Made by a program: the position numbers and the translations under genes. From positions 1 to 61,786 of the forward strand of contig JBAXPF010000001.1 of NCBI GenBank assembly GCA_037132955.1: a stretch of 61,786 bases of DNA. The letters are read 5' to 3'. The notes under the pieces were generated by a model. The model was given only the letters and a program-made list of their open reading frames with translations, made no database searches and was not told the origin of the DNA. This document shows, one piece after another, positions 58,082 to 61,786 of the stretch. The first letter of the stretch is position 1; each line of letters opens with the position of its first letter. Source of the DNA: Verrucomicrobiota bacterium. GTDB lineage: Bacteria > Verrucomicrobiota > Verrucomicrobiia > Verrucomicrobiales > Akkermansiaceae.

Positions 58082-58163
58082 CCTGCATTGCGCATTGACA
58101 ACCCGGGTGGGGCGCTGTCTATGGTCGCGGGCCGCGCCGCGCTGCATGCCCATCCGCAAGACC

Positions 58164-59159
58164 ATGACCCACAAACGCACCCTCCGCTTTCTATCCGCTG
58201 CCGACGTGCGGCGCGCCTTGCCGATGAAGCAGGCCGTTGAGGCGATGAAATCCGCCTTCCAAGAACTGTCCGAAAACCGGGCCGTCGTGCCGATGCGCAC
58301 GCATGTTTCCATGCCCGCTCACAAGGGTGAGGTGCTCGTCATGCCCGCTTACTGTCCTGCCACGGCGCGGTTTGGCTTGAAAGTCATCACGCTCTTTGAG
58401 AACAATCCGGCGCTCAACCTGCCCTTCATCCAAGCCATGGTCATGGTGTTCGACACCGCCACCGGCAGTCCCGTGGCGATCATGGAGGGCACCGCGCTCA
58501 CGGCCATCCGCTCCGGCGCGGCATCCGGCGCTGCGACCGATCTGTTAGCCAGGGCTGATGCCCGCGCCGTCGCCATTTTCGGTGCCGGGATTCAAGCCCG
58601 CACACAACTGGAAGCGGTGTGCGCCGTGAGGTCCATCAGCTCCGCCATGGTGTTTGACCACGACCGGGAACGAGCCGTCCTCTTTGCGCGGGAAGCCAGC
58701 GAGCAACTCGGCATCAGCGTGTCGCCCGCAGCGAGTCCCGCCGAAGCCCTCGCCGGTGCCGATGTCATCTGCACCGCAACCACCTCGGGCACCCCGGTTT
58801 TTGCGGACCACGAGGTGGCCAGCGGCAGTCATATCAATGCCATCGGTTGCTACAAGCCGCATATGCGCGAAATCCCGCCGGAAACCGTCGTGCGCTCGCA
58901 CGTCGTCGTGGATCAGTTAGATGCAGCATGGCAAGAGGCCGGCGACCTGATCATGCCGCGTGATGCCGGGTTGATTCAGGCCGACCATATCCGGGCCGAG
59001 CTCGGGGAAATCGTCGGCGGGACCAAGCCGGGGCGGACAGACCCGGCGAGCGTGACATTTTTCAAATCGGTGGGCATTGCCATCCAGGATCTGGCGGCGG
59101 CCAGTTGTGTGCTGGCCAATGCGCAGCAGCTCGGCCTCGGCACCGAAGTGCAGATGTGA
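58164..59159 (+). CDS. Ornithine cyclodeaminase / mu-crystallin family protein
   Basis: LVMPAY, GLKVIT, LTAIRSGAAS, FGAGIQA, ADVICTAT, HINAIG and FFKSVGIAIQD. Confidence 0.92.
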   Translation: MTHKRTLRFLSAADVRRALPMKQAVEAMKSAFQELSENRAVVPMRTHVSMPAHKGEVLVMPAYCPATARFGLKVITLFENNPALNLPFIQAMVMVFDTATGSPVAIMEGTALTAIRSGAASGAATDLLARADARAVAIFGAGIQARTQLEAVCAVRSISSAMVFDHDRERAVLFAREASEQLGISVSPAASPAEALAGADVICTATTSGTPVFADHEVASGSHINAIGCYKPHMREIPPETVVRSHVVVDQLDAAWQEAGDLIMPRDAGLIQADHIRAELGEIVGGTKPGRTDPASVTFFKSVGIAIQDLAAASCVLANAQQLGLGTEVQM

Positions 59160-59200
59160 GACCCTCCCACCAAAAAAAGGTTGTTGATAGCGAAGCTGAA

Positions 59201-59235
59201 TGAGCCCGTTTGGATTCGGGTGTTCGGCGGGCTCA
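59201..59235. terminator. Hairpin between convergent genes
   Basis: TGAGCCCG..CGGGCTCA stem. Confidence 0.4.
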
Positions 59236-60078
59236 GCCGGCGGACCACTGGCGCAGGCGCTCCGCGGAGAGTTTGACGGCTTCCTCGCCGGCGATCTCCA
59301 GAGTGGTGGGACCATCAAAGCCGGTGGCTAACAACTCCTTGACGAGCACCTCAAGGCCGACGATGCCGTCACCTAACGGAATGAGACCCATCCCGCAGCC
59401 GAACTGGGTGCCGCGTTTGGACAGCATCTCGGCGGGCATGTCCTTCCAATGCACATGTTTGATGCGCGGGCCGAAGGTCTTGATGAACTGTAGCGGATCG
59501 CCGCCGCCGAGCCATGAGTTGCCGGTGTCAAGGTTGATGCCGACGGTGTCCTCGTTGCCCAGCGCGTCAAGGATGCGGGTCATGCCGTCCACGGTGTCGG
59601 TGAGGATGCCGTGCGGTTCTAACAAAAGTTCGATGCCCAGGGCCTTGGCCCAGCGGACGGGTTCCTGGAGTTTTTCACGGATGCTGAAGATCCGTTGGTC
59701 GTCGGTGAGGTGATGGCCGAAGTCGGTTTTCGGGTCGCCCTCGGTGGTGATGACTTGTTTGACGCCGAGGAAATGGGCGAGCTTGATGGCCTTGATGATT
59801 TCGGCGGTGCCGTAGCGGTCCGGCGAGGTCGGATCGAGCAAGTTGGCGTGGGCGCAGACGCTGGTGAGCGTGAGCCCGAACTCGTTGACCATGTCAAGGA
59901 TGGTCGCCGGATGCGAGTCGAGGCTGATTGAGGCGGAGAAACCATATTCGGTGCCGAGGGTGGCGCCGTCGTGGTTGTCGGTTAGGTCGGCGTAATCGAA
60001 GCCGAGTTCACGGATGAGTTCGAATTGCCGCCGCATGGGCGAGAACGGTTGGATGAGGGCGAAGCAGCCGATTTTCAT
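59233..60078 (-). CDS. Sugar phosphate isomerase/epimerase (IolE-like TIM barrel)
   Basis: LLEPHG, INLDTGN, HVHWKD, IPLGDG and FDGPTTLE. Confidence 0.88.
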   Translation of the reverse strand: MKIGCFALIQPFSPMRRQFELIRELGFDYADLTDNHDGATLGTEYGFSASISLDSHPATILDMVNEFGLTLTSVCAHANLLDPTSPDRYGTAEIIKAIKLAHFLGVKQVITTEGDPKTDFGHHLTDDQRIFSIREKLQEPVRWAKALGIELLLEPHGILTDTVDGMTRILDALGNEDTVGINLDTGNSWLGGGDPLQFIKTFGPRIKHVHWKDMPAEMLSKRGTQFGCGMGLIPLGDGIVGLEVLVKELLATGFDGPTTLEIAGEEAVKLSAERLRQWSAG

Positions 60079-60103
60079 GGTGTTGGGGGATTGGGGTGGG
60101 GGA

Positions 60104-60979
60104 TCATTTCGCCATGCGCTCGGCGTCGGCCTGGGAGGCAGGCCAGTCTTTGGCGGGGGGGAGGGTGACTTTGTGAGTGGCGGCCCATTCGGTGCCGCGT
60201 TGGAGCAGGGTCCGCCAGGCGGTGTTCTTCATGGCGGTGGCGTCGTGGCCGAGGAAAATGGCGAACCCACGGGCGCCGCCGCTTTCGGTGGTGAAGAGAA
60301 TATTGTTATGATTGGCGGGATCCGTGGCGTTGGGCGTGGCGGCATTCGGTGGTGCGACGGTGGCCAAGGCCTTGGCACCGGCGGCCACCCCGGCGTTGTG
60401 CCAAAACTCATCGCGGATCCAGAACGGCGCGAGGCCGGCGGTGATCGGGCTTGGTTCCGCGGTGAAGGCGACCCGGTCAATGTGGATCGCGCCGTGACTG
60501 GTGGCGTCCTGCCATGCCCCGCAGGCCAGTTTTTGAAACTCCGGCCAATCGTAAAACACCGAACTGCCAGCATGCACAATGACCAAGCCGTGACCTTGCC
60601 CAAGGTGATCGAGCAGCGCCTTGCGCATCGCCGCATCCCAGACTTGGAGCGATTTGTCCTTGCCGAAGAGATTGAAATCACTGAGGACCACCGCATAGGG
60701 GGCAAAGGCCTCAGGCTTCATGCCCGCCACGTTGTTTTCGACGTCCACGCTGAAACGCCCGCTCTCTTCCAGGGTGGCCTTGATGGCCGGGGTGGTTTCC
60801 TGCCACTTGTGGTTGTTCGCTCCGCTCAGAATCAGCACGCGCAGCTTGGCTTCTTCCGCCCGCACGGGGTGGGCGGCCAGGCTGGCCACCCCGGCAAGCA
60901 GCACCAGCCCGAACCAACGGCGGGCAATGCGCCGGGTGCCGGAACCTGGGAACGCATCAAGCAACAAGCGGGAACACAT
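60104..60979 (-). CDS. ThuA-like domain secreted protein
   Basis: VLILSGANNHKW, GLVIVHAG, DEFW, FLGHD and RGTEWAAT. Confidence 0.82.
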   Translation of the reverse strand: MCSRLLLDAFPGSGTRRIARRWFGLVLLAGVASLAAHPVRAEEAKLRVLILSGANNHKWQETTPAIKATLEESGRFSVDVENNVAGMKPEAFAPYAVVLSDFNLFGKDKSLQVWDAAMRKALLDHLGQGHGLVIVHAGSSVFYDWPEFQKLACGAWQDATSHGAIHIDRVAFTAEPSPITAGLAPFWIRDEFWHNAGVAAGAKALATVAPPNAATPNATDPANHNNILFTTESGGARGFAIFLGHDATAMKNTAWRTLLQRGTEWAATHKVTLPPAKDWPASQADAERMAK

Positions 60980-61249
60980 GGCCGAAACCTAGCACCCGCG
61001 GCTGCGGGAAAACTTCCAAATCCATTCACTGGTAAATATTGCAATAAGCGGGCGCGCCCCGGAAGAGGCCCCGCGAATGGGCTGTCGCGAATGGGCTTGC
61101 CAACCCGCGCCGGTTGGCTACATTGACGCCTGAGAAACTCTCCCATCAAGCTGACGACCCACTCCATACCCCGGCGCGATTCCAACCGGCCAAGGCCCTG
61201 CAAGGCCTTCCTCCTGTGTTTCGTCCTGCCATTTCTCGGCGGGTGCAGT

Positions 61250-61696
61250 ATGGTCGGACCCTTGATCGGCGCGGCCCTGCCGCTGGCCGGAGTCAAGCTG
61301 GCTTTTTCCTGTCTCCCTGAGCATACCCTGGTGGACACCCCCTCCGGTCCGCGGGCGGTCGAACGACTGGAAGCCGGCGACTGGGTGACCGGCTATTCCG
61401 GCAAGCCGGTGCGCATCCTGCAAAAACATTCCTATCTGGAAAATCCGGCCACCGTGTTTTTGCGCATCGGCTTTGACGACGGTGCGGCGGTGGACCTGTG
61501 CGGGATGCACCGCGTGGCCGGCATCCGGGCGCGCGACCTGCGGGTGAACCAGATTGTCGCCGGCCGCAAAATCATCCGCATCGAGTCCCGCCGCGGCGTC
61601 ACCCGCTCCTTCGACCTGCTGACCACGGATGCCGGCTACCGGATCGGCGGGGTGCCGGTCAACAGCATGATCGAGGAAATGCTCGCCGCTTGTTAG
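61250..61696 (+). CDS. Stand-alone Hint (intein-like) domain protein; probably extends upstream as a lipoprotein
   Basis: S/CLPEHTLVDTPSG..VERLEAGDWV (block A), LCGMH (block B), SFDL..YRIGGVPVN/S (blocks F/G); upstream in-frame KAFLLCFVLPFLGGC. Confidence 0.8.
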   Translation: MVGPLIGAALPLAGVKLAFSCLPEHTLVDTPSGPRAVERLEAGDWVTGYSGKPVRILQKHSYLENPATVFLRIGFDDGAAVDLCGMHRVAGIRARDLRVNQIVAGRKIIRIESRRGVTRSFDLLTTDAGYRIGGVPVNSMIEEMLAAC

Positions 61697-61786
61697 CAAA
61701 CCACCAGCGGCTGCACCTTCCACACCTGGTCGCAATAGTCGCGGATCGAGCGGTCGGAGGAGAACTTGCCCATGCGCGCCACGTTG
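61693..61786 (-). CDS. glgP: Glycogen/alpha-glucan phosphorylase, C-terminal fragment (runs off the window)
   Basis: Minus-strand translation NVARMGKFSSDRSIRDYCDQVWKVQPLVVC*; FSSDR.I..Y..W is the GT35 C-terminal motif. Confidence 0.9.
   Translation of the reverse strand, partial: NVARMGKFSSDRSIRDYCDQVWKVQPLVVC

Follow-up and report, generated by a model that had tools for sequence, protein, structure and literature searches.

The C-terminal motif of B-type BILs is an acidic residue followed by Ser. The accessible portion of PMC7765530 describes these domains as lacking the penultimate His and terminal Asn of canonical inteins and as cleaving N-terminally, and another group of secreted bacterial Hint proteins is on record (PMC2362128, accessible portion). 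In Tetrahymena BUBL BIL2 the Hint thioester is resolved by a Lys epsilon-amine to give an isopeptide (PMC8616854, accessible portion), the reaction taking place between ubiquitin-like domains or on other proteins. Hedgehog Hog is the C-terminal part of a secreted precursor with an N-terminal Cys lipid. Phage virion proteins may end in an unrelated self-removing cap, Peptidase_S74 or intramolecular chaperone autocleavage (PF13884), which has a Ser–Lys dyad inside the cap (PMC8326128, accessible portion). The first ejection protein of phage T7, gp14, is encoded in a gp14–gp15–gp16 operon and forms a hexameric outer-membrane pore; the accessible portion of the review describing this (PMC8954989) contains no mention of a Hint.

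We analyzed a stretch of 61,786 nucleotides from an Akkermansiaceae genome (the window), at the end of which a gene encodes, judging by its sequence, a real and conserved protein composed of a lipoprotein signal, a Cys, an apolar peptide, a Hint domain, and a short helix. The domain shares the Hint fold of the type B BILs and Hint_2 and likewise has no intein His–Asn end, but it matches Pfam Hint_2 (PF13403) over positions 2–40 of 147 only and below the cut-off (25.8 bits vs. 28.4), is compact at 119 aa, and belongs to a family with an invariant lipoprotein Lys five residues before the first Hint residue (Lys −5) and a conserved C-terminal helix. For BILs, the text accessible describes a location in hypervariable regions of non-conserved proteins, whereas this Hint belongs to a lipoprotein that is conserved and single-copy, and also to virion proteins of phages. 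As in the Hedgehog precursor, a Hint followed by a helix ends a secreted protein with a (here predicted) N-terminal Cys lipid. The N-product differs, being a helix of 11–32 aa rather than a signaling domain; the tail (9–10 residues from the Ser in many members) is far shorter than the sterol recognition region, an intein-type block-F Asp is present, unlike in Hog, and no adduct is known for the window family. BIL2 is a structural match (Z 15.5); in the window family the Lys sits in the same chain, at a distance of five residues, and its reaction is a prediction. The Peptidase_S74 cap sits at the same junction after an apolar helix on orthologous virion proteins. Carriers of the module resemble T7 gp14 and P22 gp7 in following tail or virion genes, preceding two large genes, and ending in an apolar helix, but gp14 has about 200 aa, and the gp14-like placement of the viral carriers is by gene order alone. 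In the literature covered, from which most subscription journals are missing, we found no description of a Lys–Hint lipopeptide family. The family defines a compact Hint subtype in which the conserved unit includes a lysine of the extein.

The coordinates of the gene are collected in table 1. As described in the earlier note, which was made from the sequence alone, the frame is open over 61127–61693 with a stop at 61694–61696, and an L-G-G-C lipobox is followed after 21 residues by Cys1. The CGMH block B (His at 61508–61510), the Asn (61661–61663) and Ser (61664–61666) with MIEEMLAAC after them, and the promoter candidate were also found in place. The mature Hint lipoprotein has 150 residues. 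The first promoter hexamer is kept in the relatives L001 and L002, and the second is not; a −35-like hexamer lies upstream in 19/78 loci against 7/78 coding controls, a weak promoter signal for the family as a whole.

Table 1. Features of the Hint lipoprotein gene and its surroundings (positions in the window)
Feature	Position	Strand	Evidence or remark
Sigma-70-like promoter candidate, TTGCCA-16-TACATT	61097..61124	+	9/12 matches; 1 site vs. 0.1 expected
Probable non-canonical start, ATA	61166..61168	+	Aligns with ATG in L001/L120, ATT in L002
Predicted signal peptidase II signal, 26 aa	61166..61243	+	Arg-rich n-region, h-region, L-G-G
Lipobox Cys, predicted lipid attachment site	61244..61246	+	Invariant, 62/62 in alignment A1
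N-extein, 22 aa, predicted amphipathic apolar helix = predicted mature product	61244..61309	+	Composition, lengths, models
Lys at −5, candidate nucleophile or base	61295..61297	+	206/206 lipoprotein exteins
Hint domain, 119 aa	61310..61666	+	Cys1 61310, block-B His 61508, block-F Asp 61613
Hint C-end slots	Asn 61661 = penultimate slot; Ser 61664 = terminal slot	+	Structural alignment
C-terminal helix MIEEMLAAC with stop codon; predicted to remain attached to Hint	61667..61696	+	Conservation, models
Convergent glycogen phosphorylase gene, 3' end (neighbor)	61693..61786	−	Translation; L001/L002 counterparts

The window protein has 337 protein matches, of which the 120 listed are 64–92% identical to it. 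A genome scan confirmed 94 relatives, and the 80 that were kept are nearly all labeled Verrucomicrobia, with one Planctomycetota. All 80 loci share the layout of h-region, G/S/A–Cys, apolar peptide, Hint domain, and short tail, with Leu at −3 of the lipobox in 59/80 and 118–121 residues from Cys1 to the Asn in 80/80. A bacterial lipoprotein n- and h-region with a lipobox Cys is thus recognizable by sequence pattern, as distinct from a dedicated signal predictor. The earlier note looked to homologs for a conserved lipobox and short hydrophobic N-extein and named homologs that are fragments of larger toxins as a refutation; the elements are conserved together with the Hint in 80/80 loci, and the homologs are not fragments of larger toxins. 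A chance open reading frame is ruled out by the 337 matches and the identical layout in all 80 loci. A polymorphic toxin with a pretoxin Hint was also rejected, the tails being short and no neighbor (immunity gene) recurring across the family. One seed of the genome scan was the C-terminal motif, and conservation was therefore counted on the product of an unseeded HMMER search, including 77 full-domain representatives longer than 300 aa (hereafter long relatives). The gene is patchily distributed, being present in 9/60 relatives (5/36 within the genus) and in 1/400 genomes of an even draw from the phylum (at most eight candidates scored per genome). It is single-copy in the source assembly, in which (at 89% completeness) no paralogs were found. 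NCBIfam holds no family for the protein, the ESM Atlas has only two unnamed Verrucomicrobiota clusters, and no RNA holder came up.

No in-frame ATG, GTG, or TTG lies upstream of 61250, as the earlier note had observed, and the open reading frame list begins the gene at ATG 61250. A canonical ATG is found 13–45 codons before the lipobox Cys in 75 of 90 loci examined, the others having GTG or TTG only (7), none (4, the window copy included), or not being parsed (4). An ATG at position 61166, which the earlier note had hoped to find in homologs, is indeed carried by L001 in alignment with the ATA of the window, and L002 has ATT there; its own ATG aligns with AAG 61202. An assembly error at the start codon is ruled out because contigs of three other studies show no difference over the stretch that includes 61166 and 61202. 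For the window population we prefer initiation at ATA over silence or initiation at ATG 61250 without the signal. It is unlikely, and a question separate from the mechanism of the family, that this copy has lost its start and is silent, or yields a signal-less cytoplasmic protein. The missing start codon is what speaks for such a loss. Against it, the ATA occupies the position of a relative's ATG, neither the signal nor the lipobox nor any catalytic residue is damaged, three further loci likewise have no canonical start, and lineage-specific changes are 5 synonymous to 1 non-synonymous (small numbers). The dN/dS of the window gene against its two closest relatives is 0.22 and 0.16, which at the level of sequence comparison shows purifying selection despite the lack of a canonical start. 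Five loci (L057, L059, L060, L070, and L006) also have no ATG before the signal, four of them with a similar upstream peptide. The pattern of starts suggests that non-canonical initiation recurs in the family. Run X4 holds a second related allele (window 61235–61768) with 30 differences and different upstream sequence, from the same lake sample as an identical allele. LspA was found in the source assembly and Lgt in 5/5 relatives; no Lgt was found in the source assembly (89% complete).

AlphaFold modeled the Hint domain with pLDDT >90 and included the C-terminal helix, and both Foldseek and VIA-align returned Hint structures, which confirms a horseshoe Hint fold. The top VIA-align match was the Hedgehog Hint 1at0 (Z 16.9, rmsd 1.7 Å, 119 aligned residues), tied with class 3 inteins within one Z unit. 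The N-terminal motifs match Hint_2 in 60/62 family members, and 14/62 weakly match the Pfam Hint module. Cys or Ser at position 1 and the block-B His are present in 62/62 members of alignment A1, and Cys1, block-B His, and block-F Asp are each present in 77/77 long relatives. Block F has the consensus D-x-G-Y, with no His. The Asn is kept in 14/14 lipoprotein representatives and in 47/77 long relatives, the others having Asp (19), Gln (4), or Ala, Glu, Lys, or His (7), so that 70/77 have N, D, or Q. The residue after it is S, T, or C in 77/77 and is followed by Met in 77/77, with Glu at +5 in 62/77.

The earlier note read the Asn as the terminal splice residue of a 118-aa domain. In the VIA-align end points the window Ser is the last residue aligned to the final residue of many intein chains. 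Aligned chain ends include residue 145 of MchDnaB-1, for which the title of a sister entry names the terminal Asn N145; the final residues of the other aligned chains we take to be terminal Asn as well. The His–Asn Hints among the matches have a turn Gly, three residues, and then His–Asn, and the Asn–Ser of the family falls in these two slots. The Asn thus fills the slot of the penultimate His, the Ser the terminal slot, and the domain has 119 aa. Both C-terminal His residues, penultimate and F-block, are absent. The end of the domain is therefore not a splice junction, leaving a thioester with no splicing exit, and with Cys1, His, and Asp invariant the sequences lead us to conclude that thioester formation is probably conserved and splicing unlikely. 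The Hint is always near the C-terminus, and orthologs that have none simply end there or carry S74, a pattern other than the insertion of a canonical intein. Long proteins with several His–Asn Hint domains each, some in tandem, were also encountered (P0310, P0315, P0320, and P0324).

The Lys five residues before Cys1 is present in 206/206 lipoprotein exteins. In the long relatives it is at −5 in 64/77, at −6 in 4, and at neither in 9, with Arg at −5 in 0/77; Lys reaches at most 10% at any other of 30 upstream positions. The HMMER profile contained the Lys column, which biases these Lys counts upward. One clade of long relatives has no such Lys, and the phage-type clades of P0256, P0258, P0264, P0269, P0248, and P0254, which keep the Hint and have lost Lys −5, constitute natural controls for the role of the Lys. 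Across the 206 exteins only 2 of 4457 residues are acidic. Extein lengths of the lipoproteins are 11, 14, 15, 18, 22, 25, 26, 29, and 32 aa, and are phase-locked at 100 degrees per residue (R 0.77, P 5e-5 under a null of random distinct lengths with the ends fixed). Lengths that step by helical turns indicate that the extein is under selection as a helix of fixed register. Lys −5 lies within 60 degrees of the center of the apolar face in 68/73 lipoprotein exteins of at least 18 aa and in 51/64 long exteins, counts that come from related rather than independent sequences. The extein is helical in both AlphaFold models, at low confidence, and in the second only the segment from the Lys onward reaches pLDDT of at least 50 next to the Hint, which is weak support. 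The earlier note is borne out on the arrangement of lipobox, extein, and Hint, Asn-type splicing is not supported, and the note missed Lys −5, the length rule, and the sharing of the module with phages.

The same Lys–Hint module terminates proteins of 300–1350 aa and the products of 39 viral loci, none of which (0/39) is of the lipoprotein type. Long representatives with no genomic context are called phage-type here by their likeness to these loci. Viral carrier genes have about 290–1270 codons, and in the 14 of 39 loci read, the carrier as a rule comes after large genes of tail- or virion-like type, often with a small gene in between (an acetyltransferase in L081), and is itself followed by two more large genes. 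A PHROG virion family was matched by 3 of the 29 long proteins scanned. Hint-capped phage virion genes before two large genes are seen in L081 (8924–10432), L082 (9173–10453), L106 (9347–10507), L108 (8873–10387), L113 (8561–10474), and L119 (9050–10435); their 390–640 aa products are unnamed in PHROGs, and one downstream large gene of L113 has LysM/endolysin similarity.

Orthologs of one phage protein, P0128, differ in how they end. Among the 120 of 136 orthologs listed, 8 have a Hint cap (6 of these first found with the Hint profile), 35 a recognizable Peptidase_S74 junction, and 77 neither, the last group comprising uncapped proteins plus some S74-like tails missed by the motif. Lys −5 is present in 8/8 Hint-capped and 0/35 S74-capped proteins, and a Lys five residues from the C-terminus in 1/77 of the rest. 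This distribution ties the Lys to the reaction of the Hint rather than to whatever the helix itself does. In each of the three forms the mature protein terminates in an apolar helix rich in Gly and Ala. Hint cap, Peptidase_S74 cap, and no cap interchange at the same helix end in P0327–P0440, one phrog_6121-like virion family. Cultured relatives carry the annotation of virion structural protein, in some cases together with S74; the 50,697 records of cultured phages gave no full-length match to the module. Hint and S74 would be exchangeable caps that complete the membrane helix of a phage virion protein and then remove themselves, an exchange relevant to how ejection proteins are kept soluble until they are needed.

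A midpoint-rooted tree placed the lipoproteins on one side of a branch with SH-aLRT 93 (43 vs. 77 rows). With six His–Asn Hints as outgroup, in a tree drawing on 40 of 74 long rows and leaving out 3 long-branch rows, the long forms could still be monophyletic (p-AU 0.76), an arrangement that had the higher score, the lipoproteins needing four changes. Neither rooting establishes that the Hint lipoprotein was borrowed from phage.

We propose the following course for the bacterial protein. By analogy with established lipoprotein biogenesis, the precursor is very probably exported and lipidated on Cys 61244. An N–S shift at the Ser−1/Cys1 bond would then place a thioester on the Hint Cys1, and N-terminal self-cleavage, by which the Hint cuts itself off through this thioester, is also probable, with slightly more reserve. 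Lys −5 may attack the thioester in cis to form a five-residue lactam ring at the C-terminus of the peptide, with no separate enzyme, and we hold it tentatively, at somewhat short of an even chance, that the lipidated amphipathic helix is closed in this manner. The lactam would erase both end charges, the Lys amine and the C-terminal carboxylate, and so complete the apolar face, which could let the lipid-anchored helix sink into the outer membrane; phage virion proteins in the gp14-like slot would have their membrane helix completed by the same cap. Closure by Lys is in accord with the invariance of Cys1, His, and Asp next to a varying Asn, with a thioester that has no splicing exit, with the conservation of Lys −5 on the apolar face and never as Arg, with its restriction to Hint-capped P0128 orthologs, with the placement of the Lys-onward segment in the second model (weakly), with dN/dS values of 0.16–0.22, and with the precedent of BIL2. 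Against it, strict Lys conservation fits a general base equally well, 13/77 long relatives have no Lys −5, so that the Hint can be kept without it, and the window copy has no canonical start. The retention of Asn in all lipoprotein representatives, and of N, D, or Q in most long relatives, is further counter-evidence. If the lactam or isopeptide is true, it would add a new outcome to the splicing, cleavage, and sterol transfer that Hints are known for, and would give a route to ribosomal cyclic lipopeptides that needs no other component and is useful as a cyclization tool.

The main rival reading, possible though not probable, is that the cap is lost by plain hydrolysis: the Hint and C-terminal helix would chaperone the apolar helix and cleave off, leaving a linear lipopeptide, and Lys −5 would, at a similarly modest likelihood, be an extein-supplied base or a docking residue. 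The Hint stands at the same junction as the self-cleaving S74 cap with its Ser–Lys dyad, many uncapped orthologs end in the same helix, some long relatives have no Lys, and B-type BILs offer an example of N-terminal cleavage. Hydrolysis would, however, leave a charged Lys in the middle of an apolar face, which S74-capped and uncapped orthologs avoid, and the usual set of Cys, His, and Asp is already present in the Hint.

Two other fates of the thioester seem improbable, to about the same degree. In the first, Lys −5 of a neighboring chain attacks it and a covalent oligomer or ring results, a stapled membrane pore. The conservation of the Lys suits this equally, as do the hexameric pore of gp14, the ligation to Lys in trans by BIL2, and the fixed packing register implied by the helical-turn length rule; yet the Lys is four residues from the acyl carbon of its own chain and should have a much higher effective concentration in cis. 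In the second, as in Hedgehog, the nucleophile comes from outside (a membrane lipid, LPS, or an amine of peptidoglycan) and is brought in by the C-terminal helix, giving a doubly anchored peptide. The first rank of the Hedgehog Hint by Z (with class 3 inteins tied within one unit), the weak matches of 14/62 members to the Pfam Hint module, and the conserved helix in the place of the sterol or adduct region of Hog are consistent with such an adduct, but the tail, which can have as few as 8–9 residues, falls well short of a sterol recognition region, one and the same module would have to act in phage-infected cytoplasm and in periplasm, and Lys −5 is left unexplained. Canonical splicing, in which Asn cyclization would join lipopeptide and C-terminal tail (part of the idea in the earlier note), has in its favor the near-invariant Asn–Ser of the lipoproteins and the N/D/Q and S/T/C residues of the long relatives, but is very improbable given the wrong register, with Ser rather than Asn matching the terminal intein residue, the missing G- and F-block His, and an Asn that varies in 30/77 long relatives, to A, E, K, or H in 7.

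Among toxin, signal, envelope, and decoy roles for the bacterial peptide, we weakly favor a decoy that would disturb assembly of the phage ejection channel, rating it well below an even chance. Its patchy, partner-less occurrence and its likeness to the phage membrane helix point that way, whereas the neighbors show no defense context. Closing the Lys lactam and the decoy role combine in a broader and rather doubtful scenario of a single-gene route, free of enzymes, to a lipidated macrolactam peptide, in which a Hint subtype that cyclizes its own N-extein through Lys −5 is used by phages to arm the helix of the first ejection protein, and Verrucomicrobia display a lipid-anchored mimic that jams the channel.

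A defense island was considered and rejected, with a PADLOC match in only 1/87 flanking open reading frames, a cyclase (frames picked heuristically). A conserved operon partner such as a receptor, transporter, or immunity gene was also excluded: the largest neighbor cluster covers 11/81 loci, with synteny otherwise at clade level only. Named flanking genes have assorted housekeeping functions (70 of 87 picked frames scanned). In the window, positions 58095–60979 hold an ornithine cyclodeaminase-family gene (+), a xylose-isomerase-like TIM barrel gene (−), and a ThuA-like gene (−), which are not linked to the Hint gene family-wide. The Hint gene itself lies between this divergent ThuA-like gene and the 3' end of the convergent glycogen phosphorylase gene. 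The abutting genes in L001 (from 6453) and L002 (from 981) are also glycogen phosphorylases. In the window the stops of the two convergent genes overlap, and the glycogen phosphorylase gene probably explains the short, Cys-ending tail of the Hint in this clade.
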